Source: Chlamydiota bacterium (GTDB taxonomy: Bacteria; Chlamydiota; Chlamydiia; Chlamydiales; JAAKFR01). Taken from it: DNA of 64,000 nt. Shown here one piece after another: positions 2,782-17,007 of the stretch. The DNA lies in assembly GCA_021772455.1 (NCBI GenBank), contig JAJFLY010000006.1:19641-83640 (forward strand), read 5' to 3'. Below the pieces are notes generated by a model, which did no database searches, had not been told where the DNA came from, and saw only the letters and a list, made by a program, of their open reading frames with translations. Positions within the stretch are counted from its first letter, which is position 1; each line of letters begins with the position of its first letter. The position numbers were made by a program, and so were the translations under genes.

Positions 2782-3688
2782 TGAGGAGGAGGCAGAGCTC
2801 AGGCTCGATAAGTTACTTGCGCTGCGTTTCCCAGAATATTCACGCCAATACTTTCAGTCTCTTATCCGAGACAAGCTTGTCCTTGTTAATGGAAGCCTTG
2901 TCAAAAAAGCGGCTAAACTCGAAATAGGCGACGAGATCGAGATCGAGTTTGCTGTCACTCCCGAAATCTCACTTGAACCTGAAAACATTGAACTCGATAT
3001 CCTCTTTGAAGATGACGATTTAATTGCCGTCAATAAACCTGCTGGGATGGTCGTCCACCCAGCTGTTGGAAATTGGTCGGGCACATTTGTCAATGCCCTC
3101 ATCTACCACTGTAAAAACCTTCCCACAGCTGGAACACTCCGCCCCGGCATTGTACACCGCCTTGACAAGGAGACCTCAGGAGTTCTTATTGCAGCTAAAA
3201 ATAAGCGTGCTCAACAACTTATGGTCGAAAAATTCGCAAATCGTCAAATTGAAAAAGTCTATCTCGCCATTTGCATCGGCAACCCCGGAAATAGAGTAAT
3301 CGAAGGGAATATCGGCCGTCACCCAGTTCGTCGCAAGGAGATGGCTATACTGGAAGGTAAGGGGCGCGCAGCACGCACGCGGTGTGAAAGCCTGGGACAC
3401 ACAGATATTTTAAGCCTCGTCCGTCTCTTTCCCGAAACAGGGCGCACCCACCAGCTGCGCGTCCACTTAAAAGGTGCCGGCACCCCTATTTTAGGCGATC
3501 GCATTTATGGAAGCTCTCCTATCAACACAAAACTAGGTGCGAATCGACAAATGCTCCACGCCTACTCTTTGCGATTTGAGCACCCTTTACGCAAAGAAGA
3601 GATTGAGCTTAAAGCCCCTATCCCTCAAGATATGGAAAAATTTATTAAACAAGTCACGAATCATGCGCCTTTTAGTTCAGAGAGTTAA
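2765..3688 (+). CDS. rluD: RluA/RluD-family 23S rRNA pseudouridine synthase
   Basis: N-terminal S4-like region, then LIAVNKPAGMVVHP and the catalytic HRLDKETSGVLIAAK motif. Length is 307 aa. Confidence 0.85.
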   Translation: MTINVSEEEAELRLDKLLALRFPEYSRQYFQSLIRDKLVLVNGSLVKKAAKLEIGDEIEIEFAVTPEISLEPENIELDILFEDDDLIAVNKPAGMVVHPAVGNWSGTFVNALIYHCKNLPTAGTLRPGIVHRLDKETSGVLIAAKNKRAQQLMVEKFANRQIEKVYLAICIGNPGNRVIEGNIGRHPVRRKEMAILEGKGRAARTRCESLGHTDILSLVRLFPETGRTHQLRVHLKGAGTPILGDRIYGSSPINTKLGANRQMLHAYSLRFEHPLRKEEIELKAPIPQDMEKFIKQVTNHAPFSSES

Positions 3689-4103
3689 AGAAGCCCACGT
3701 CTCGGTGAATGAAAAAGTCTGCGGAAAAATCAACCACGGACTTCTTCTCTACTTGGGCATCCATAAAGACGACACCCCTACAAAAACCGACTGGTTGATC
3801 AACAAACTTATCGGTTTACGTATCTTTTGCGATGAAGAAGGTCAAATGAACCACGATATTCAGCAAGCACAAGGCGATGTCTTACTGATCAGCCAATTTA
3901 CCCTTTATGGTGACGTCCAGAGTGGAAGGCGCCCTGGATTTACCGAAGCTGCCCTCCCGGAGCCCGCCTTTCTACTCTATGAACAGTTTATCAGTGAACT
4001 GAAAGAGGCGCTGGGACGCCCAGTGCAAACTGGTGTCTTCGGCGCACTTATGGAAGTCTCCTCAATAAATGATGGCCCTGTTACATTTCTCTTAGAGCGT
4101 TAG
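3663..4103 (+). CDS. dtd: D-aminoacyl-tRNA deacylase
   Basis: MRLLVQRVKEAHVSV... and SQFTLYGD...GRRPGF are the Dtd signature. The track ORF (3537) is over-extended. ATG at 3663 gives the expected ~146 aa. Confidence 0.85.
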   Translation: MRLLVQRVKEAHVSVNEKVCGKINHGLLLYLGIHKDDTPTKTDWLINKLIGLRIFCDEEGQMNHDIQQAQGDVLLISQFTLYGDVQSGRRPGFTEAALPEPAFLLYEQFISELKEALGRPVQTGVFGALMEVSSINDGPVTFLLER

Positions 4104-6577: not shown

Positions 6578-7305
6578 TGAAGCCGCCGATTTTAGAGGTT
6601 CAAAATCTAGAAAAAAGTTATGGAGATCGCAAGGTAGTTTCGGGCCTTTCATTTACCATCCAAGAGGGTGAAATTGTAGGCCTGCTAGGTCCAAATGGCG
6701 CTGGAAAAACAACAGCTTTTTATATGACAATGGGGCTAATCCGCCCCGATAAAGGGACGATTCTTTTCAAACAAACCGATGTCACAAAAATGCCGATCGA
6801 CAAACGGGCAAAAATGGGAATGGGCTATCTTGCTCAAGAGCCCTCTATCTTCCGTAGTTTGACTGTCGAAGAAAACATTCTATGCATTCTAGAAACGCTG
6901 CCCATCACCAAAAAAGAGCGGCTCCACCGTCTGGAGAAACTGCTACATGAGTTGAACCTCGAAAAGCTCGCGAAAAAAAGAGCAGCAGGTCTTTCCGGTG
7001 GGGAAAGGCGTCGTTTAGAAATTACTCGCGCACTTGTTACAAATCCCTCGTTCCTCTTGCTTGATGAGCCCTTTGCTAACATCGATCCAATCGCAATCAA
7101 CGATGTGCAACACATGATCCGCCTGCTTGCCAAAAAGAAAATCAGCGTCCTCATTACCGACCACAATGCGCGCGAAATTTTCTCGATTGTAGACCGGAGC
7201 TACTTAATTCGTGATGGAAAAGTCTTTCTTTCTGGTACTGTTGATGCATTAATTCACAACGAAGAAGCGCGCCACACATACCTCGGCGCAGATTTTAAGA
7301 TATAA
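6571..7305 (+). CDS. lptB: LPS export ABC transporter ATP-binding protein
   Basis: Walker A GPNGAGKTT, signature LSGGERRRLEI, Walker B LLLDEPF and a C-terminal ...ARHTYLGADFKI typical of LptB. Confidence 0.85.
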   Translation: MVMKPPILEVQNLEKSYGDRKVVSGLSFTIQEGEIVGLLGPNGAGKTTAFYMTMGLIRPDKGTILFKQTDVTKMPIDKRAKMGMGYLAQEPSIFRSLTVEENILCILETLPITKKERLHRLEKLLHELNLEKLAKKRAAGLSGGERRRLEITRALVTNPSFLLLDEPFANIDPIAINDVQHMIRLLAKKKISVLITDHNAREIFSIVDRSYLIRDGKVFLSGTVDALIHNEEARHTYLGADFKI

Positions 7306-7875: not shown

Positions 7876-8762
7876 AGGAAAAGATGCGTTCCTTTGCCCA
7901 CGGCACCATTTACATGGTGCTGTCTGCGGCAAGCTTGTCACTCGCCTATCTCTTTGTAAAGATCAGCACCGCTGAGGTTCCCTACTTCCTACTCGTCTTT
8001 TTACGTTTCATCATCCCCTTCCTCTTTCTCGCCACTGTTTTTGCAATCGGGCGAAGATCGATTAAAACCCAGTCGCTGCGGGCCCATATGCTCCGCATCC
8101 TGTTTGTCTTAATCGCCCAATACAGCATCTTCTATTACATCTCAAAAGACTCGCTCCTAAACGCAACCGTATTGCTCAATACCTCCCCCCTCTTTATCCC
8201 TCTGATCGAGTGGTTTTTCTTAAAATACCGCATCCCCAAATCGACCTGGATCAGCATGGTGATTTCGGCCGTGGGGGTTGTCTGTATTCTACAACCAGGC
8301 ACAGGCCTTTTCTCTAAATTAAGCCTTATCGGCCTCCTTGCAGGAATTTGCCAAGCCGGCTCACAGGTCGTTTTTGGCCTGAGCGCAAAAAAAGAAGCCC
8401 CAGAGATTTCTCTCTTCTACCTCTTTGGCTTTGGGAGTATCCTCTCGTTTTTTCCGTTAATTGGGCAAAGGACTGCGCTCGAGGTTTCGTGGACACCCAG
8501 TCTTATCGTTTTTATCTTGCTTCTTTCATCTGCAGGCCTGATGAACCAGTACTTTCGAGGAAAAGCCTATGCTCACCGCAAACCCTCAACACTCTCAACC
8601 TTTCTCTATCTTTCGGTCCCGATTTCAGGTTTTTTTGACTGGTTTGTCTTTTATGATGTTCCAAATACCCTTTCGATTATCGGGGCTATTCTAGTAATTG
8701 TGGGGGGTGGTTCAAAGATTGCGCTCAGGTACTACTTCCTCAAGCGCAAGCAGACTTTATAA
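7872..8762 (+). CDS. EamA/DMT-family transporter
   Basis: About 10 hydrophobic segments in 296 aa with a duplicated EamA-like architecture. Confidence 0.65.
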   Translation: MKEKMRSFAHGTIYMVLSAASLSLAYLFVKISTAEVPYFLLVFLRFIIPFLFLATVFAIGRRSIKTQSLRAHMLRILFVLIAQYSIFYYISKDSLLNATVLLNTSPLFIPLIEWFFLKYRIPKSTWISMVISAVGVVCILQPGTGLFSKLSLIGLLAGICQAGSQVVFGLSAKKEAPEISLFYLFGFGSILSFFPLIGQRTALEVSWTPSLIVFILLLSSAGLMNQYFRGKAYAHRKPSTLSTFLYLSVPISGFFDWFVFYDVPNTLSIIGAILVIVGGGSKIALRYYFLKRKQTL

Positions 8763-10916
8763 GAATTGCTTTTCGACAAAGCGCATGAAAATCCCCTCTT
8801 GTTTCGCAAGATCGCGAAATTTTCCAGAAGCAATTATCTTCTTATCATCCATCACGAAGATTTGATCGGCCATCTCCAAAACATTTAGGCGATGGCTCGT
8901 TAAGATAATTGTTTTGCCAAGCGCTTTCATGTTGTTCAGCACCCTCTCCTGGGTCTGATTATCCAAGGTATTTAACCCCTCATCGATAATCAAGATCGAA
9001 GGATCGGCAAGTAAAGCTCTGGCAAGTAAGATTTTCTGCTTTTGCCCCCCCGACAAGAGCCCTCCAATACTCGAAAGCATGGTGTCAAGTCCCATAGGAA
9101 GCTCAGGGAGGATCTCATCAAATGTAGTAGCCGCGAGCGCCTCCTCAATCATCTCAGAAGAGCATCTACGCCCACATGTCAGATTATCATAGATATTTCC
9201 GTTAAAAATCTTGTTCTCTTGGTGGACAAAACCTATTTGCTTTCGCAACTTAAAGACATCTATCTCAGTCATATCTTGGTCATCAAAGAAGAGTGTATTG
9301 GGCTCGCACGCTTCGAAGCCAAAGAGGATGCGGCAAAGGGTAGACTTCCCACACCCTGTTTTTCCAACAAGCCCCACAAACTCCCCTTGGCGAATGCTTA
9401 AGTTTAAGTCCTTCAAAATAAGAGGTGTTTCGGATCCATAGCGAAAATGAAGATTTCTTACGGTAATCTGCCCCTTGAGCCTTCCGGGATCGGCTTTTTC
9501 TTCTGTTTTCTCCGGAGGGGTCGTAAGCAGAGGCCCTACCCTTTTCCAAAATGGATAGAGCTCTGTTATGGAGGAGAGTGTTCCAATTAACCCTAGCAAT
9601 GACTGAGAGAAAGGGGTAAATGCTGCCAAAAATCCTAGAAAAGTACCGATTGAGATCGCTGTAATGGAAGGATCGGTCTGCCCTTGGCTTTTTTTATAAA
9701 TCACAAAGCCATAGATCGAAAGTGGCAGCAATACCTTCATAAAGGCGGCTGTTGCCTTCACGACATTTTCAAGATTGATAATTTTAAATGTCAGAGACTG
9801 GTTATAAGAAAAGGAGCGCGCCCACTTGGAAAAAATGCGCTTTTCTAATGCGGCTGAACGCACCTTGTTAATGCCGTTAATCACTTGAACAAGAAAAGAT
9901 TGAATCTCAGCTGTCGAAGCTAAAAGTTTCTTTTCTAGACGAATTTTGTAGATTGCAATGGCAATTACAAACACGCTCCAAATGAGGGCCAAGCTAAGTC
10001 CAAGTAGGGTTAATTGCCAGCTAAAGTAAAATGTCAACACCAGGTAGAAGAGGCCAAAAAAGCTGTTTAATAAGACAGTCAATGTACCAGAGGAAATAAT
10101 ATCTTTGATTTGCTCGAAAATCATCGTCCGCTCTAATAAATCACCACTCGTGATGGTGCGAAAAAAATTGAGGGGTAAGCGGAGAAGACGATCCCAAAGG
10201 GTGATTTGGATCTTATTTGTTAGAAGTCCCCTGATACGCAAAGTGATGACGGCGCGGAAAAATGAAAAGACAGCACTACTTAAAAGAATGACAAAAAGAC
10301 CAATAAATAGCTGCGTGTAGACAGTGAAGTTATAGTTCGGGATCACATAGTCAAATAAGACTTTGTTCACAAAAGGCAAAGCAAAGCCCAGCACAAGCGC
10401 TGCGAGCCCTATTAAGAAAAGGGAGGTGTATTCCCACTGCATTTTTGAGACAACAGCCGAAAAAATCCCTCGAAATTTCCCCACATCCTTGGGAAGAGAT
10501 GGGTAGAGCATGATGGCTTCATCTACAAGAAGGTGGGCCGTCTTTTCATCAACAACTGTGTGCTCTTGTGTTTCAGGATCAACAAAGTGATACTCTTTGT
10601 GGTCATAAAAAATGACCGAAACGGGTCTTTTCTCTTTCTTGTAAAAACCAACAAAGTGGCCATGGTCTTCCTTCCACCACTCAGCCTGAAGAGTGATCTC
10701 GCGGTGACGGAGGACCCCTGGACTGCAAATCTCCTCAATATCTGTACTCTCCTGCACCGAAATAAGAAGAGAGACCCCTATTTTATCCGCGACGCAAGCG
10801 CACGCTTTAAATAGTAAGCTCCCCTCTCCTGCAGGAACCGTTTCCAATTCACGAGTCGCGATCACCTTCTTCAAATGCTTTAACGACTGCTCGACGAGAT
10901 TATCATCACTTTCCAT
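8757..10916 (-). CDS. ABC exporter (TMD+NBD) with an N-terminal degenerate C39-like domain
   Basis: Walker A GKTGCGKST, LSGGQKQKI, ILIIDEG and a six-helix TMD. The N-terminal ~140 aa aligns by eye to the C39 domain of the 13849 gene (HGHFVGF, FVDP) but lacks the Gln placed 6 residues before the Cys. The track start at 10952 is TTG, so I prefer ATG at 10916 (MESDDN...). Confidence 0.8.
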   Translation of the reverse strand: MESDDNLVEQSLKHLKKVIATRELETVPAGEGSLLFKACACVADKIGVSLLISVQESTDIEEICSPGVLRHREITLQAEWWKEDHGHFVGFYKKEKRPVSVIFYDHKEYHFVDPETQEHTVVDEKTAHLLVDEAIMLYPSLPKDVGKFRGIFSAVVSKMQWEYTSLFLIGLAALVLGFALPFVNKVLFDYVIPNYNFTVYTQLFIGLFVILLSSAVFSFFRAVITLRIRGLLTNKIQITLWDRLLRLPLNFFRTITSGDLLERTMIFEQIKDIISSGTLTVLLNSFFGLFYLVLTFYFSWQLTLLGLSLALIWSVFVIAIAIYKIRLEKKLLASTAEIQSFLVQVINGINKVRSAALEKRIFSKWARSFSYNQSLTFKIINLENVVKATAAFMKVLLPLSIYGFVIYKKSQGQTDPSITAISIGTFLGFLAAFTPFSQSLLGLIGTLSSITELYPFWKRVGPLLTTPPEKTEEKADPGRLKGQITVRNLHFRYGSETPLILKDLNLSIRQGEFVGLVGKTGCGKSTLCRILFGFEACEPNTLFFDDQDMTEIDVFKLRKQIGFVHQENKIFNGNIYDNLTCGRRCSSEMIEEALAATTFDEILPELPMGLDTMLSSIGGLLSGGQKQKILLARALLADPSILIIDEGLNTLDNQTQERVLNNMKALGKTIILTSHRLNVLEMADQIFVMDDKKIIASGKFRDLAKQEGIFMRFVEKQFL

Positions 10917-10995
10917 ATGTTTTTCTTTAATCCATCGAGGAAATATTGCCAATCATTGAAAAAAACATTAGTGTCGGTTTGGGAGGGATATTCTT

Positions 10996-12684
10996 ATGCG
11001 AGCAATGATTGCTCTTGCTGCTGTAACTTTGCTAAATTTGTCTGTTTTTGCCGAATTCTCTTCAACAAAGGAAGAGGAGCTGGAAGAAGCGCGCACTCTT
11101 TTAGAAGGTACACCTACTCAGCCTCCGGAAGAGATCTTACAATGGCTTAGGTCGAAGAAAATCTTAGAAGAGACACCCATTGAAGAGTTTGGAAGCAAAG
11201 AGATTCCCCCTTCAGAAATCTCTTTATCCAATGCAATCTCAACGACATTACGCAACCAGTGGAAAATTGAGATCAGTGAAAGTGAGGTCGTCCGCAGGTA
11301 TGGGGAGTGGCAAGAGTCTGCAGGTCCGTTTGATCCTGTTTTAACCTCTACGTTTGGAAATACATGGCTGCTTGACCCCCAACAACTTGGAAACAAAACC
11401 AATGAAACAGGTTCTATCACAACCCTAGAAGTTGCTGTAGAAAAGCTGACCCGTCCTGGAACGCAGTTTAGTCTTGGATCTAGAGTTAAACGCACTCACA
11501 ACCCCTCACTGATTGTCACAGTTCCAGACTTCACCCGTTTTAACGGCTCTTCTCTTGTGTTTGAGGTCGTTCAACCTCTTTTGCGTGGATTTCTCTACAA
11601 TGAAGCTGCTGTAGAAGAAAGAATCTCCTCTATGGAATTTGATGCTTCCAAGTATCTTCTTGTCCAAACAATGTCTGAAGAGGTCTTGAATTCCATTACA
11701 GCGTATTGGGAGCTTGTCGCTGCCGAAAAAATCGTTGAAATCAATGTAGATGCACAACACATTTTAGACGGCTTAACTCAAGCAACCTACAGACTCGTTG
11801 AAAAAGAGCAGTTGGCAGCCTCCGAGTTAAATGAACAAATCGCTGAAATTGCTAGAAACCGGCGCGACCTTGTCGCATCGAGACAAGCTGTCTATGAGGC
11901 CTATAACGCCTTCCTTTTTCAGATCGGAGAGAGGAAATGCACATTTAGCGAAAATTTACCCCATTTAATCTTGGATAATTTCATCTTGCCCCATGGCGAT
12001 AAAAGAGAGTGGGATCTCGACTGCCTGCTCAATCAAGCCTATGACCACAGAGGAGACTTGATCGCAGCGCGCATTGCCGTGCAAGAGGCCGATTTACTCT
12101 ACCGCTTGGCATGCAAAAATGTCCTCCCATCTCTCGATGCATCTTTTGAGGTTGAGCTCCTAAATAGCTCCATTGAAAGACCTTCGCAGAGGTTGTTCGC
12201 CTCTTATTATCCAAAACAAATGGAGAAGGATATTTCAGCCGAAATCAGGCTCTCCATCCCTTTTTGGAACGATCGTGCACGGGGCGCCCGGACGCAGAGG
12301 CGAGAAGAGCGGATGCAAGCCTTTCTAGAAGAGAATGAACTTTGGTCGAGTATCTACTCCGACATTGCCACAATTTTACGCGAGCAAATTGAGCTCGTTG
12401 ACGAGATATATTATGCCACCAAAGCTGCCGAGTGGTACGAGATTGCGCTCAGAGATGAAATCATGCGAACCAAAGAGGGGTATGGCTCCTTGTTTGTTGT
12501 CATCGACTTTGAGAACAGATTTCGCAGAACATTGCTGGAACGGGTCGACGTCCAAAAGCGCTATTCTCAAAATATTGCGCAGCTCCTTTTTCTAACAGGG
12601 ACGCTTGTGCTTGTTGATACGGTTACCCAAGAAATAGAAATAGACCCTTTTAATTACGATCATTTATTGGTGAGTCATGAGTAA
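10996..12684 (+). CDS. TolC-like outer-membrane efflux factor
   Basis: Signal peptide MRAMIALAAVTLLNLSVFA. The 562-aa protein has two long helical/coiled repeats typical of OEP-family proteins. GGGAGGG SD. It is the first gene of an operon with the HlyD and ABC genes. Confidence 0.7.
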   Translation: MRAMIALAAVTLLNLSVFAEFSSTKEEELEEARTLLEGTPTQPPEEILQWLRSKKILEETPIEEFGSKEIPPSEISLSNAISTTLRNQWKIEISESEVVRRYGEWQESAGPFDPVLTSTFGNTWLLDPQQLGNKTNETGSITTLEVAVEKLTRPGTQFSLGSRVKRTHNPSLIVTVPDFTRFNGSSLVFEVVQPLLRGFLYNEAAVEERISSMEFDASKYLLVQTMSEEVLNSITAYWELVAAEKIVEINVDAQHILDGLTQATYRLVEKEQLAASELNEQIAEIARNRRDLVASRQAVYEAYNAFLFQIGERKCTFSENLPHLILDNFILPHGDKREWDLDCLLNQAYDHRGDLIAARIAVQEADLLYRLACKNVLPSLDASFEVELLNSSIERPSQRLFASYYPKQMEKDISAEIRLSIPFWNDRARGARTQRREERMQAFLEENELWSSIYSDIATILREQIELVDEIYYATKAAEWYEIALRDEIMRTKEGYGSLFVVIDFENRFRRTLLERVDVQKRYSQNIAQLLFLTGTLVLVDTVTQEIEIDPFNYDHLLVSHE

Positions 12685-13852
12685 AACAGATCAAGAAACG
12701 ATAGATAGGCTAAGTCAGAGTGAAGCCACTCGCCAACCTCTGACAATTGAATTCCCCAAAAATTGGCCTATTATGGCTGTATTAATTGTACTCGCTTCCC
12801 TCTTAGTTATATGGGCATTTTGGGGGCGCATCCCCACTCAGATTAATGGACAAGGTGTTTCACTCAACCCTTCAGGAACCTTTTTGGTGGAGGCCAATAC
12901 CGCTGGAAAAATGATCGAATTTTTTGTTCACGAGGGGGAAGAGGTCGAAAAAAGCGCCCCTTTGGGTGTGATTTATAACCCTGATCTTAAATCCCTTTTA
13001 GTTCAAATTGAAACGACAGAGTACAAGATCATCCACCTAAAATCCGAACTTGCTCTTTTAGACAAAGCCCTCGAAATTAATGAAGAGCTGTTTGAGGAAG
13101 GGCTCGTTGCAAAACTGATAGTCGATGGAGCAAAGGCTAAAGTCTATGACAAACAAATTTCGATCGAAGAGGCAAAATCCGAACTTAAGACGTTATTTTC
13201 GAAACTAGAAAATTCCTCTCCCGCATCAGGAGAAATTGTCCAGTGGGCTAAGGGTCAGCTACTTGACAGCAAACCCACTCTCGACCTTCAAAGTATTGAA
13301 GATGAACTTTCAATTATTCGCTCGCCAGAGAAAGGAACAGTGCTTGAAATTCTCGTCGGTGAAGGAGATCACATCGACCGGAAAGAGCCGATCATCTGGG
13401 TTGAGCATCCCTTAGACGCTGATGAACAAGAGGTTTTCTACAGCACGGTAAATGCAAATGTGATTGGACGGGTCGAGCCCGGTATGCGCGTGTTGATCGA
13501 ACCACTGATTGTCAACCCACGCGAATATGGAGCCATTATTGGAGAGGTGAAAGACGTTTATCCCTATCCAGTTTCACAAGAAGAGCTCGTTCAAACGATT
13601 GGAAACAAGCAAATCGTCAAATTTCTGCTCGGCGAATCGCCCGTTGTCACCCTTCTAGTGGTGAATCCCAAATCCGACCCAGAAACGGTGAGCGGTTTTG
13701 AGTGGACCTCTGAGCAAGGTCCTCCATTTACGATCCCAACAGGAACCGTGTGCAACCTAAAGCTCGTCATCGAAGAGCAACCACCCATTTCGTATCTGAT
13801 TCCTCTTTGGAGAATTAAAGAGCCATTCACCAACCAGGAGCCTGAAAAGTGA
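12677..13852 (+). CDS. HlyD-family membrane-fusion (periplasmic adaptor) protein
   Basis: Single N-terminal TM (WPIMAVLIVLASLLVIWAFWG), a central coiled coil and a beta-barrel C-terminus. Its start overlaps the TolC-like stop. Confidence 0.8.
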   Translation: MSKTDQETIDRLSQSEATRQPLTIEFPKNWPIMAVLIVLASLLVIWAFWGRIPTQINGQGVSLNPSGTFLVEANTAGKMIEFFVHEGEEVEKSAPLGVIYNPDLKSLLVQIETTEYKIIHLKSELALLDKALEINEELFEEGLVAKLIVDGAKAKVYDKQISIEEAKSELKTLFSKLENSSPASGEIVQWAKGQLLDSKPTLDLQSIEDELSIIRSPEKGTVLEILVGEGDHIDRKEPIIWVEHPLDADEQEVFYSTVNANVIGRVEPGMRVLIEPLIVNPREYGAIIGEVKDVYPYPVSQEELVQTIGNKQIVKFLLGESPVVTLLVVNPKSDPETVSGFEWTSEQGPPFTIPTGTVCNLKLVIEEQPPISYLIPLWRIKEPFTNQEPEK

Positions 13853-15990
13853 TCCGAACGCCGCGTCTTATTCAAATGGAAGCCGTGGAGTGTGGGGCTG
13901 CTGCCCTCGGAATCGTGCTGGGGTATTACAAACGGTTCGTTTCTCTTGAGGAGCTCCGCCTCACGTGTGGAGTTTCGCGCGACGGAGTAAACGCCTTTGG
14001 AATGATTCAAGCCGCAAGATATTATGGTTTAGAAGGAGATGGCTACCACGCAACAGCTGAAGATTTAGCTAAAGTAGACACGCCGGCCATTCTACATTGG
14101 GGGAAAAATCACTTCGTTGTTCTAGAAGGGATTCGCGGCACGTCCGTTTCGATCAACGACCCCGCAACAGGCCCCCGAAAGGTCCACATCGAGGAGCTTC
14201 AGCAACAATTCTCAGGAATTGTGATCGTTTTAAAGCCGTCAGAATCCTTTGAAAAAAAAGGGAAAGATATCTCCTTGGCTTCCCAGCTAAAAGAGCGGTT
14301 TTTCGCCTTTACTCCTGAAATTGCCTATCTGTTTGCATTCGCGGTTGTCGCCCTCGTCTTCTCGCTTGCCCTGCCAGCCATCTCTAAAATCTTTGTCGAC
14401 ACCTTCTTGCAAGGCACTCTCCCCTCCTGGAAAAAGGAATATTTGTTGTTTATGGGCTTCATCATGGTTGCTGTTACCACCATCGCATGGTTTCAAGGCC
14501 TCTTTACAAATCGTATGTTGGTGGGACTCACGATACGATTTAATACCCAATTTCTTCGCCACCTTCTCTCTCTGCCCATCTCATTTTTCTCTCAACGTTT
14601 TCCTGGAGAGATTTTGGATCGTATCGAGTTAAATACCAGACTAGCCTCTGTCTTTATTGGGGGAATTGTCAGCAGCGTTTTAAGTCTTATTTTGGTCTGC
14701 GTCTACGGCTTTATCCTCTTTTACTACAACAGGCTCATTGCCCTGATCGGCATCTCTGCTGGTTTCTTTAATATCTTTTTGCTCTGGTGGATCAACAGAA
14801 CACGGGTCCACGCCTACGCGCGCTTGCAACAAGAAGAGGCAAAAACCGTTGGGATCTCCTACGACATCCTCGACAACATCGACACGATGAAGAGCGTCTC
14901 GGGCGACTCCTTCTTCTTCTCAAGAATTGCCGGCCACTACACCAGTGCAATCAATGCCATGCAAGCAATTGGACGAAAAGATGTCTTTTTAGGGGCTTTT
15001 TCTTCCCTCTCAATCGGAGTGACAAACCTCCTCTTATTAGCTGTAGGAGCGTGGCTTGTGATGAAAGGAGAAATGACAATCGGGATGCTTTTTGCCTTCC
15101 AAATGATCATGGGAAGCTTCCTTGCCCCTTTCAGCAAACTCCTTCAGTTTGGAGCCGCTCTTCAGACGCTCAAGGTTGATATTGCGCGGGTCGATGATGT
15201 TCTACAACACAAAATCGATGTCTTATTAGAGCCCAAAGAGAATGAAGAGGAGACCACTAAACTTGAAGGGAGGGTGGAATTTCATCAGATCAGTTTTGGG
15301 TACGCCCTCTTAGAAGAGCCCTTTATTTCAGATTTAAGCCTGACCATTCCAAAAGGGGAAATGGTAGGCGTTGTCGGTCCTATTGGCTCGGGCAAAACAA
15401 CCCTCATCAAATTAGGCTCAGGGCTTTATCAACCCTGGAAGGGATCGATCTTGCTCGATGACAAGTCCCTCCTCGAACACTCAAGAGAGACGCTCAAATA
15501 CTCACTTGCAAGCGTCGATCAAGAAATCAAGTTATTTGCTGCCACCATCTATGAAAATATCGCCCTTTGGGATAGTAGCGTGACCGAAAAAATGGTTGAA
15601 GAGGCTGCCAAAAAAGCGCTGTTGCACGATGAGATCATGCGCCTTCCCTTTGGCTACCATACCAAGCTGCAAGAGAGAGGGGCAAATATTAGCCAAGGGC
15701 AAAAACAACGCTTAGAGCTCGCCCGGGCGCTCTTGTATGACCCTTCCATTCTGATCTTAGATGAGTCTCTCAACTCGGTTGATTCCGAAACAGAGTCCAA
15801 AATTTTAGCCCAGCTTCAAGAGCTTGGATGTACAACCCTCCTTGTCTCTCACCGTTTAAGCACGGTCAGACACTGCAATCGGATTCTGGTGATGGAAAAA
15901 GGAAAGATCGTGGCCGCTGGAAAGCATGAGGAGCTCATGAAGAGCTCAGAGCTTTACCAAAATTTATGCACATTTGAATTGAATCGCTAA
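13849..15990 (+). CDS. peptidase-containing ABC transporter (PCAT): C39 cysteine peptidase + TMD + NBD
   Basis: The N-terminal LIQMEAVECGAAALGIV has Gln9/Cys15. NHFVVLEG supplies His88 and SINDP supplies Asp104, giving an intact C39 triad by eye. Walker A GPIGSGKTT, ISQGQKQRL and ILILDES. GTG start overlaps the HlyD stop. Confidence 0.85.
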   Translation: MIRTPRLIQMEAVECGAAALGIVLGYYKRFVSLEELRLTCGVSRDGVNAFGMIQAARYYGLEGDGYHATAEDLAKVDTPAILHWGKNHFVVLEGIRGTSVSINDPATGPRKVHIEELQQQFSGIVIVLKPSESFEKKGKDISLASQLKERFFAFTPEIAYLFAFAVVALVFSLALPAISKIFVDTFLQGTLPSWKKEYLLFMGFIMVAVTTIAWFQGLFTNRMLVGLTIRFNTQFLRHLLSLPISFFSQRFPGEILDRIELNTRLASVFIGGIVSSVLSLILVCVYGFILFYYNRLIALIGISAGFFNIFLLWWINRTRVHAYARLQQEEAKTVGISYDILDNIDTMKSVSGDSFFFSRIAGHYTSAINAMQAIGRKDVFLGAFSSLSIGVTNLLLLAVGAWLVMKGEMTIGMLFAFQMIMGSFLAPFSKLLQFGAALQTLKVDIARVDDVLQHKIDVLLEPKENEEETTKLEGRVEFHQISFGYALLEEPFISDLSLTIPKGEMVGVVGPIGSGKTTLIKLGSGLYQPWKGSILLDDKSLLEHSRETLKYSLASVDQEIKLFAATIYENIALWDSSVTEKMVEEAAKKALLHDEIMRLPFGYHTKLQERGANISQGQKQRLELARALLYDPSILILDESLNSVDSETESKILAQLQELGCTTLLVSHRLSTVRHCNRILVMEKGKIVAAGKHEELMKSSELYQNLCTFELNR

Positions 15991-16019
15991 AAAAATAAAG
16001 CCCTCCGCTGGGAGGGCTT
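15991..16019 (-). terminator. intrinsic terminator hairpin between convergent genes
   Basis: AAGCCCTCC (15998-16006) pairs with GGAGGGCTT (16011-16019) around a GCTG loop. On the minus strand it is followed by TTATTTTTT, so it best serves the peptide gene. It also sits 8 nt after the PCAT stop. Confidence 0.65.
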
Positions 16020-16055
16020 ACCTCAACTCTAAAGAACCTTGAACCACAGGCAATG

Positions 16056-16373
16056 CTACAGCAAAATAACAGGTACTTGTGGCTGTGGGTTGCTGGGATT
16101 AAGCGGTGGTAGTGTAGTGTTATCGTCTATAACACCCCCATCATCACCCCCACCATCTGGAATGGTACCGTTTCCGCCCCCATCAACTGGGCCAGGTACT
16201 GGCTCTGGTTCAGGTGTAGGCTCAGGTTCACTATGGTGACCGAAGATTCTTGCTAGCCAGCCCATAATAAGACTGCGCAATCTCATTCTGAAACCACTGT
16301 ATCTACGGAACCCAAAGCCCCCTCGCACCTCTCTTAGAGTCTCTTCCGAGGCTTTTTTAAGTTCAATGCCCAT
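16056..16373 (-). CDS. double-glycine-leader secreted peptide precursor (bacteriocin-like), 19-aa leader + 86-aa core
   Basis: MGIELKKASEETLREVRGG matches the GG-leader pattern: hydrophobic at -4 (V), -7 (L) and -15 (L), Ser at -11, and GG at -2/-1. AGGAG SD lies 7 nt upstream of ATG. It has its own terminator and is adjacent and convergent to the C39 exporter. Confidence 0.7.
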   Translation of the reverse strand: MGIELKKASEETLREVRGGFGFRRYSGFRMRLRSLIMGWLARIFGHHSEPEPTPEPEPVPGPVDGGGNGTIPDGGGDDGGVIDDNTTLPPLNPSNPQPQVPVILL

Positions 16374-16403
16374 AAAAAATCTCCTCTCTCATATAAGAGA
16401 ATA

Positions 16404-16422
16404 GGGGGATTTATTGTCCCCC
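16404..16422 (-). terminator. hairpin downstream of pabA (candidate terminator/attenuator ahead of the peptide gene)
   Basis: GGGGGA...TCCCCC is a 6-bp stem. On the minus strand it is followed by TATTCTCTTATAT. It lies between the pabA stop (16459) and the peptide ATG (16373). Confidence 0.4.
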
Positions 16423-16458
16423 TCGTTAACTCTATTGTACACAATATTTTATAAAAAA

Positions 16459-17007
16459 TCAAACCTTAAGGAAGTTGTTAAGAAGCACTAAGCCATCTGC
16501 CGTCGCCACAGACTCAGGATGGAATTGAACACCGAAAATCGGCTTAGTTTTATGGCGCAACCCCATTACCTCTCCTTGATCAGTCCAGGCAGTCACTTCA
16601 AGCACATCGGGTAAATTTTCTAGGATAAGAGAGTGGTAGCGGGTCGCCTCAAAAGGGAGAGGAAGACCTTTAAAAAGCCCCTCAGAGCGATGATGGATCA
16701 AAGAGGTCTTACCATGCATCACGCGCAGTGCGTGGCTCAAAATGGCTCCAAACACCTCTCCTATCGCTTGGTGCCCGAGGCAAATTCCAAGAATGGGAAC
16801 GCTTGCCTTCTCGATTAACTCTTTGGAAATCCCCGCTCCTGATGGATTGCCCGGACCTGGCCCGATAACCAAAAGGGAGGGGTCTTTATCTAATATCTCT
16901 TGGGCAGAAAGTGCATCATTACGCACAACTTCCACCTTCTGCCCAAGAATTTGAAACGCCTGCACAATGTTGTACGTAAACGAATCGTAGTTATCTACCA
17001 AAATCAA
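16459..17007 (-). CDS. glutamine amidotransferase component II of anthranilate/aminodeoxychorismate synthase (TrpG/PabA)
   Basis: [25 protein letters not shown] (catalytic Cys) and FGVQFHPES are class-I GATase TrpG/PabA motifs. Confidence 0.85.

Follow-up and report, generated by a model that had tools for sequence, protein, structure and literature searches.

Do members of the Chlamydiales export small peptides with double-glycine leaders, and if so, does the one considered here represent a new kind of cargo? The question is raised by an open reading frame (ORF) at 16056..16373 (-) of a stretch of 64,000 nucleotides (hereafter the window) from contig JAJFLY010000006.1 of a Chlamydiota bacterium (assembly GCA_021772455.1, positions 19,641 to 83,640). 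A first-pass annotation, made from the letters of the sequence, had described the product as a double-glycine leader followed by a cationic amphipathic head and an acidic tail, and had proposed it as a new architectural class of cargo for C39-peptidase ATP-binding cassette (ABC) transporters (PCATs). From the analysis presented here we consider it likely that the ORF is expressed and encodes a double-glycine-leader precursor that stays unmodified and serves as cargo of the adjoining four-gene NHLP/NHLM-type export cassette. The proposal of a new class, which draws on one sequence whose tail is of low complexity, lacks support. The TypA protein encoded in the window is 80-86% identical to its nearest named homologues, all from metagenome-assembled genomes of Chlamydiales, so the organism is an uncultured member of this order; its closest relatives by TypA share 85-88% identity. 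An identical contig of 4.5 kb is present in the sample of SRR15505518.

The predicted precursor gene and its exporter

Re-reading of the sequence confirmed an ORF with an ATG start and 105 codons plus stop, and its coordinates, sequence, Gly-Gly site, lack of Cys and division of the core into four segments were all exactly as first described. The leader, MGIELKKASEETLREVRGG (residues 1-19, 16317..16373 (-)), has its Gly-Gly at residues 18-19, is followed by a core of 86 residues, and is homologous to the leaders of two related loci treated below (L082 and L083). With 19 residues ending in GG it falls within the length of about 15-30 residues, ending in GG, GA or GS, that characterises C39 substrates. 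The double-glycine pattern, as known from the ComA consensus and the LahT complex, comprises hydrophobic residues at positions -4, -7 and -12 and an acidic residue near -8 (PMC6363468). In the leader the positions -4, -7 and -12 are taken by Val, Leu and Ala, and -15 by Leu; Glu occupies both -9 and -10, and Thr is found at -8. It fits the pattern in its three hydrophobic positions, the Ala at -12 and the lack of an acidic residue at exactly -8 being its weaker points. Among the intergenic ORFs of the window, this is the only one that fits the double-glycine leader pattern.

As judged by its flanking signals, the peptide gene is a self-contained expression unit with its own promoter, hairpin, strong ribosome-binding site and terminator. 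A promoter scan identified a putative sigma-70-type promoter (TTGATT, a 17 nt spacer and TACAAT) at 16434..16462 (-), and a GC-rich hairpin (GAGGGGGA...TCCCCCT, 16403..16423 (-)) lies in the 5' untranslated region (5'UTR). A Shine-Dalgarno site, AGAGAGGAG (16381..16389 (-)), is located 7 nt upstream of the ATG; the GAGAGAG portion of this region is base-paired with TTCTCTT in a second, small hairpin of the 5'UTR. A strong intrinsic terminator with a 9-bp GC-rich stem and a T-run (15998..16019 (-)) lies between the peptide gene and the convergent transporter gene. An antisense ORF at 16039..16239 (+) (TTG start, 66 aa) was rejected since it mirrors the low-complexity tail of the peptide and overlaps the terminator region.

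The peptide gene is situated 66 nt from the stop codon of the transporter gene with which it converges. The transporter (13849..15990 (+)) is a PCAT of the NHLP/NHLM type (TIGR03796, E = 3.6e-242) with the Pfam domains Peptidase_C39 (E = 7.4e-34), ABC_membrane and ABC_tran. Its cassette further encodes an HlyD-like periplasmic adaptor of NHLP bacteriocin systems (12677..13852 (+); TIGR03794, E = 1.4e-50, above the cut-off), a TolC-like outer-membrane efflux protein (10996..12684 (+); Pfam OEP, E = 4.4e-15) and a second ABC permease/ATPase without a peptidase domain (8757..10952 (-); TIGR03797, E = 8.5e-190). In the last of these proteins, the N-terminal ~180 aa preceding the membrane domain (10413..10952 (-)) matched no Pfam family, solved structure or C39-like domain by sequence. 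TIGR03794, TIGR03796 and TIGR03797 are the best matches of the three co-located proteins; only TIGR03794 passes its curated cut-off, the ABC proteins being 5-11% short of theirs. The four transport genes form an NHLP/NHLM-type type I secretion cassette, a kind of export system described by Haft et al. 2010 and defined through its association with modified NHLP and Nif11 precursors (PMC2887384). Residues 3-134 of the transporter match the crystallised LahT protease domain 6MPZ (LahT150) with E = 1e-41, and Cys15, His88 and Asp104 of the C39 domain are invariant across 14 chlamydial homologues. LahT is the protease closest to this domain, and the leader in the window carries the Val-4 and Leu-7 contacts of the LahT complex. 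The transporter is the predicted leader protease and exporter of the peptide.

Cargo genes of related Chlamydiales loci

The closest homologues of the transporter, with 74, 69, 64, 56 and 51% identity, are found on contigs L082-L086. In each of these a small gene directly follows the transporter gene, usually in convergent orientation as in the window, and all of these small genes start with a leader of 17-21 aa ending in GG. Across 8 related chlamydial loci there are 11 distinct small cargo genes with such a leader; the loci with named cargo genes are L082, L083, L084 (three genes), L085, L086, L168 and L169 (two genes), and the total of 11 is reached with L167-L169 included. In six loci the cargo gene comes after the last transporter gene, which is the C39 transporter or, in L168, the second ABC gene; in L169 both cargo genes are upstream of the cassette. 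The leaders read MDKFLKKASEKTLREVWGG in L082, MDKFLKKASEEELKRITGG in L083, MFNKD(I/V)KKVPEE(D/A)LRKIVGG in the three genes of L084, and MKWEKVSDKELQKVRGG in L085.

When the DNA of seven cargo genes from five chlamydial genomes was aligned, the promoter, the position of the 5'UTR hairpin, the ribosome-binding site and the leader codons lined up, the -35/-10 arrangement being TTGATT, an AT-rich spacer and TATAAT. The hairpin keeps its position, with a different sequence, in L082, L083, the three genes of L084 and L085, and terminators equivalent to that of the window sit after the cargo genes of the related loci. Directly after the GG codons the alignment breaks down, and the core region is unaligned. 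Of the 19 leader codons, 8 are identical between the window and L082, 6 differ by synonymous changes only and 5 are nonsynonymous; this pattern indicates selection in the frame of the ORF and is typical of a leader that is translated and constrained. The proposal that the ORF encodes a double-glycine cargo of the adjoining C39 transporter is supported by these comparisons, in that cargo genes beside orthologous chlamydial cassettes have kept the leader with its GG position as well as the promoter and the ribosome-binding site.

The cargo cores of the related loci, on the other hand, range from 32 to 68 aa, have no relationship from one locus to another and are in many cases rich in Gly, Pro, Ala, Ser or Thr. 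Some of them finish in acidic runs, and two of the L084 paralogues end in ...HFKHRERDDDDEEGDD and ...HHKHHKHHKHHERDDDDGERDD. When 5.8 billion proteins were searched by a word index for homologues of the window peptide, nothing but the peptide itself was found; in an exhaustive HMMER search of 1.84 billion representative proteins the peptide was joined by a single compositional match, to a repeat protein (P0122), which was rejected as low-complexity. BLASTP produced no alignment at E <= 100 between the core in the window and the one beside the closest cassette, whose transporter is 74% identical, and no family of Pfam or NCBIfam, searched to E <= 10, matched the peptide significantly. The core is an orphan and hypervariable between lineages, whereas the leader and the regulatory frame are conserved. 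As far as these sequences indicate, the mature peptide is lineage-specific. With regard to more distant relatives, four metagenome loci (L089-L092) with transporters 45-49% identical had no convincing adjoining cargo gene by pattern scan, and among genome representatives the best match to the transporter was 38% identical, with no close relatives there.

Some further features of these loci should be mentioned. The 5'UTRs of the cargo genes have a common layout, in which a GC-rich hairpin directly after the -10 box is followed by a pyrimidine run (TTCTCTT or CCCTCTT) able to pair with the purine-rich Shine-Dalgarno region. The structure is located at 16381..16425 (-) in the window, at 6707..6770 in L082 and at 8626..8690 in L083, and it is also present upstream of L084 12379, 12955 and 13535 and of L085 4056. 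In L084 this C-rich strand has two possible partners, one of them upstream and the other being the Shine-Dalgarno site. The structured 5'UTR might be a translational switch or an mRNA stabiliser; when it was compared with Rfam, the sole match was at chance level (E = 0.16, 14 bits against a cut-off of 103 bits).

The three cargo paralogues of L084 lie in tandem (12188..13535 (-)) with near-identical leaders, promoters and terminators and with different cores. Two of them join a His/Lys-rich patch (HHKHHKHHKHH) with an acidic C-terminus (ERDDDDGERDD), which suggests that they bind metal or follow some other design with paired charges. In L169 the main difference between the two paralogues is a Gly/Pro/Ser-rich insertion that one of them has right behind the predicted cleavage site. 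Among the ~4.9 million six-frame residues of all loci retrieved, the motif GG-x(1-3)-TIP-x(1-3)-GG is confined to two distinct places, namely GGGNGTIPDGGG at residues 65-76 of the window peptide (about 16146..16181) and GGGGTTIPSSGG in one of the cargo paralogues of L169, a distant chlamydial cassette (3440..3694 (-)); it could be a relic of common origin or a convergence in Gly-rich segments. Beside the cargo gene of L086, at 11393..11977, there is a 112-aa ABC ATPase fragment and a second copy of the cargo leader that runs into a run of N, which has the appearance of a gap in the assembly or of a portion of the cassette that was duplicated and has decayed. Encoded near the export cassette of L168 (1..3191 (-)) is a protein of >2200 aa that combines ankyrin repeats with a toxin domain, Ntox28, and an AbiEi/AbiEii toxin-antitoxin pair follows the cargo gene in L082. 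In relatives the cassette accordingly tends towards variable, conflict-related surroundings, unlike the cassette in the window, which is found in a housekeeping context.

Composition and predicted structure of the core

The core has a mass of 9185 Da (9.2 kDa), a pI (isoelectric point) of 4.8 and a net charge of -4; 14 of its 86 residues (16%) are Gly, and none is Cys. Its first segment, the head (residues 20-47, 16233..16316 (-)), is basic, with 6 Arg, one more than originally counted, 2 His, and neither acidic residues nor Pro. It carries a net charge of +6 in addition to the two His and has a pI of 12. The second segment is an acidic Pro-Glu stretch, SEPEPTPEPEPVPGPV (residues 48-63, 16185..16232 (-)), that is predicted to be coil, the third an acidic Gly/Asp-rich stretch, DGGGNGTIPDGGGDDGGVIDDNTT (residues 64-87, 16113..16184 (-)), and the fourth an uncharged Pro-rich end, LPPLNPSNPQPQVPVILL (residues 88-105, 16056..16112 (-), stop codon included). 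The 58 residues following the head, the acidic tail, have a net charge of -10, a pI of 4.05 and all 14 Pro of the core (shuffle p = 0.002). Charge segregation in the core is complete, with all 6 basic residues preceding the 10 acidic ones, an arrangement matched by 1.2e-4 of the shuffles. Judged by these shuffles, the biased composition and the separation of charges are genuine features of the sequence rather than an impression.

Part of the acidic tail has arisen through short tandem duplications. At the DNA level, an 18-nt tandem repeat (2.1 copies, 16193-16230) encodes the PEPEPT/PEPEPV unit of the Pro-Glu segment, and a 12-nt tandem repeat (2.1 copies, 16133-16157) encodes the DGGGD-type unit of the Gly/Asp segment. 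Taken together with the variety of cores among the relatives, these repeats make the low-complexity segments look like fast-evolving additions and not like conserved domains. The Pro-Glu spacer had been called TonB-like, which is apt with regard to composition; homology to TonB was rejected, as the match to the NCBIfam TonB model covers 16 residues, is compositional and scores 9.7 bits (E = 0.68) against a cut-off of 265 bits. A regular-expression search of the core did not find the RTX nonapeptide GGxGxDxUx, nor did the Gly/Asp segment contain EF-hand or dockerin-like calcium-loop patterns.

The head consists of an Arg-rich run (residues 20-33) passing into a hydrophobic run (residues 34-45); it is predicted to be helical, and it does not form an amphipathic alpha-helix. 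The Eisenberg hydrophobic moment of the 28-residue head was 0.19 at 100 degrees, a value reached by 62% of the shuffles, and its best 18-residue stretch scored 0.41 on a HeliQuest-type scale, which was equalled by 27% of the shuffles. On the same type of scale the classical amphipathic peptides magainin, melittin, cecropin and LL-37 score 0.52-0.78. The Arg residues are distributed all round the helical wheel, and only one periodicity in the head comes near significance, with GFRMRLRS... alternating every two residues (moment 0.57 at 170 degrees, p ~0.03). The description of a cationic amphipathic head therefore stands for its first adjective but not for its second. AlphaFold2, run with no alignment, predicted a leader helix at residues 10-19, a helix at residues 22-45 (pLDDT, the predicted local distance difference test, up to 91 in this block) and coil throughout the tail (pLDDT 54-69). 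The acidic Pro/Gly/Asp tail is accordingly predicted to be disordered.

Possible roles of the peptide and the surroundings of its cassette

How would such a precursor be handled, and what would it do? In our reading the peptide is almost certainly a double-glycine-leader cargo of the adjoining exporter, and we consider its cleavage and export likely. The 19-residue leader would form a short helix, with Val-4, Leu-7 and Ala-12 docking in a hydrophobic groove of the C39 domain of the transporter, and the Cys15/His88/Asp104 peptidase would cut the precursor after Gly19. The 86-residue core would then leave by way of the two ABC proteins, the HlyD adaptor and the TolC-like channel, and so cross both membranes. 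In the mature peptide the N-terminal helix (22-45) would be the membrane-engaging part, and the acidic tail might keep the exported peptide soluble and net negative, or aid targeting. As to its role, that of a bacteriocin-like, secreted antagonistic peptide resembling class II microcins is the one we put first, albeit tentatively and with well under half of the confidence that we place in export; the precursor is also comparable to those of class II bacteriocins.

Class II microcins are ~5-10 kDa in size and glycine-rich (mean 23.8% Gly), are either unmodified or carry no more than a disulfide or a siderophore, have a signal of 15-18 aa ending in GG or GA, and are exported by a PCAT, a membrane fusion protein (MFP) and TolC; their C-terminus governs uptake and their N-terminus activity (PMC10233263). 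Like MccV (colicin V), MccL, MccE492 and MccH47, the peptide has a leader of about 15-19 aa ending in GG, a C39 transporter, an adaptor and a TolC-like channel. Its core, known here from sequence, lies within their range of size and Gly content, with 9185 Da, 16% Gly, no Cys and a net negative charge, and its N-/C-terminal modularity agrees with their description. In contrast to the microcins, it has no sequence similarity to any of them, a chlamydial instead of an enterobacterial producer, no immunity gene in sight, an exporter with two ABC proteins of the NHLP/NHLM type, and a tail rich in Pro/Glu and Gly/Asp in place of the Ser/Gly motif for siderophore attachment. The view that peptides exported by PCATs usually have 30-60 aa and lack an anionic extension is too narrow in the light of this group (PMC10233263). 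Bacteroidetocins, from the Bacteroidetes, are likewise small double-glycine proteins of Gram-negative bacteria that are encoded near a PCAT; they have <100 aa, a 15-aa double-glycine signal and reportedly no immunity protein (PMC12219008; PMC10233263). They belong to another phylum, are unrelated in sequence to the peptide and differ in core composition.

Several observations weigh against the reading as an exported antagonistic cargo. The transporter scores 805.6 bits, just below the TIGR03796 cut-off of 853.3, and the second ABC protein 632.6 bits against 709.4 for TIGR03797. The leader has Ala instead of Leu at -12 and Thr instead of Glu at -8, and the peptide is known from one genome only. 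Its structural model was built from a single sequence and is of low confidence (mean pLDDT 63.7), and the head, with the weak moments given above, is unlike typical membrane-lytic peptides in amphipathicity. No immunity gene was recognised beside the peptide, there being no small membrane-protein gene between the transporter and pabA. Furthermore, the Chlamydiales are intracellular bacteria, which raises the question of which competitor or membrane the peptide would meet.

Among the rival explanations, the one closest to the first-pass annotation gives the acidic tail a dedicated function, either as an intramolecular pro-region that neutralises a lytic, cationic and amphipathic head or as the module by which this head binds a receptor, and makes the peptide a new class of PCAT cargo. 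We regard this as unlikely. The complete, non-random segregation of charge (p = 1.2e-4; pI 12 in the head and 4.05 in the tail) speaks for it, as do the two non-homologous L084 paralogues that also put a basic His/Lys patch ahead of an acidic C-terminus. However, the core is a singleton whose head/tail arrangement is kept in no relative (of the two features by which the first-pass annotation was to be judged among homologues, the leader GG is conserved and the layout of the core is not, so that the architectural half of it fails), the head lacks helical amphipathicity, no second processing site or protease is evident, and low complexity, recent DNA tandem duplications and predicted disorder fit a labile region better than a folded binding domain. 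Eukaryotic antimicrobial-peptide precursors also combine a cationic and an anionic segment of roughly balancing charge; this is an analogy only, and there a dedicated protease takes off the anionic piece. The peptide differs from them in this respect, and also in its order of segments, cationic first and anionic last, and in its export route. The claim of a new class fails on two of these grounds, the head/tail arrangement kept in no relative and the lack of helical amphipathicity, and on one more, since size, Gly richness, net negative charge and modularity all fall within the description of class II microcins, for which modular, anionic, Gly-rich cargo of 5-10 kDa is on record. A bolder extension, to which we give slightly less credence still, is that environmental chlamydiae keep the exporter and cargo genes and swap the cores, and that the Arg-rich helical warhead in the window stays inactive through its charge-matching, disordered acidic tail until it is outside the cell, as a bacterial counterpart of the animal anionic pro-piece directed against co-resident microbes or host membranes.

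Three further readings concern the destination or processing of the peptide. That it is a ComC/BlpC-like signalling pheromone, which the PCAT would export and cleave and a two-component system would sense, strikes us as improbable. Such double-glycine pheromones are PCAT-exported (PMC6363468). The cores are also hypervariable between strains, as pherotypes are, and the leader of one relative weakly resembles ComC and EntF induction-factor models (E = 0.04-0.2); against this, no histidine kinase or response regulator is encoded within ~8 kb on either side, and the three divergent tandem paralogues of L084 are more typical of toxin arsenals. A core of 86 aa is, moreover, far longer than those of known double-glycine pheromones. 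A host-directed effector acting on eukaryotic membranes or organelles, with the Arg-rich N-terminus as a targeting element, is improbable to the same degree. The organism belongs to an intracellular group, the first 28 residues of the core are predicted to be helical and contain 6 Arg and no acidic residue, and the cassette of L168 adjoins the large ankyrin-repeat toxin-domain protein; but type I secretion delivers to the outside of the bacterium and not over the membrane of a host vacuole, the peptide has no similarity to any known effector, and its hydrophobic moment is weak. Even less probable is a ribosomally synthesised and post-translationally modified peptide (RiPP) whose core is modified by enzymes encoded elsewhere, as happens with many cargoes of such cassettes. 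The association that defines this cassette type (PMC2887384) favours such a precursor, and the transport cassette of the window (TIGR03794/03796/03797) is the three-gene one of the NHLP/Nif11 systems, but the core has no Cys, and neither the NHLP (TIGR03793) nor the Nif11 (TIGR03798) leader model of NCBIfam matched the peptide at E <= 10. A leader of 19 aa is too short compared with the long recognition leaders of those precursors, which are homologous to the nitrile hydratase alpha subunit or to Nif11. The flanks contain no gene for a lanthionine synthetase, cyclodehydratase or radical SAM enzyme, and no modification enzyme, sensor kinase or response regulator was found within ~8 kb. By its sequence the peptide itself is neither an NHLP nor a Nif11 precursor, despite the type of its cassette, whose two ABC proteins remain below the equivalog cut-offs. 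Least credible of all is an untranslated chance ORF. The orphan sequence, the low-complexity composition and an atypical G+C content at third codon positions (GC3), 0.39 against 0.44-0.53 in the adjoining genes, could be taken in its favour; however, conservation across genomes extends from the promoter and the hairpin to the Shine-Dalgarno site, the ATG and the leader, where substitutions in frame are synonymous in part, the place beside the transporter is the same as in most related loci, and the gene has its own terminator downstream. The leader codon pattern and the conserved signals effectively exclude this possibility.

RTX substrates resemble the peptide in their ABC/HlyD/TolC-type export and their Gly/Asp-rich segments. 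They have a C-terminal, uncleaved signal, whereas the peptide has a predicted cleaved leader at its N-terminus, no nonapeptide and only ~24 Gly/Asp-rich residues.

If the reading as an exported double-glycine precursor is right, the Chlamydiales join the bacteria that make double-glycine secreted peptides. The literature searched contained no paper on such peptides or on NHLP-type exporters in the Chlamydiales proper; Victivallis, from the wider "chlamydia group", is all that Haft et al. name (PMC2887384). The pattern at the level of the family, a constant frame for expression and export with a swapped payload in five genomes, may outweigh the single peptide in importance. A conserved promoter, 5'UTR and leader with exchanged payloads is a tidy and unsurprising extension of bacteriocin and microcin biology, and the constancy of the frame makes the cargo genes easy to mine and to try in existing microcin secretion chassis. 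The design with a basic head and an acidic tail is so far a one-off and does not amount to a class until there is a second example or proof of a function for the tail.

The genes beyond the cassette in the window are of the housekeeping type. On one side they encode a topoisomerase subunit, a pseudouridine synthase, dtd, folK, kdsA, an ABC ATPase, a flavodoxin and an EamA protein, and on the other side a pabA-like amidotransferase, ndk, ruvA and ruvC. Directly upstream of ruvC, at 19866..21611 (-), lies the gene for a 581-aa protein extremely rich in Glu, Lys and Leu, with a coiled-coil-like composition and no Pfam match. Between ndk and ruvA, an ORF of 216 aa (17586..18236 (+)) gave a weak match to a GIY-YIG nuclease (E = 0.004, below the cut-off). 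Together with two small ORFs at 18369..18813 (+) it is encoded on the strand opposite to that of ndk and ruvA, and these ORFs may be the remnant of a mobile element.

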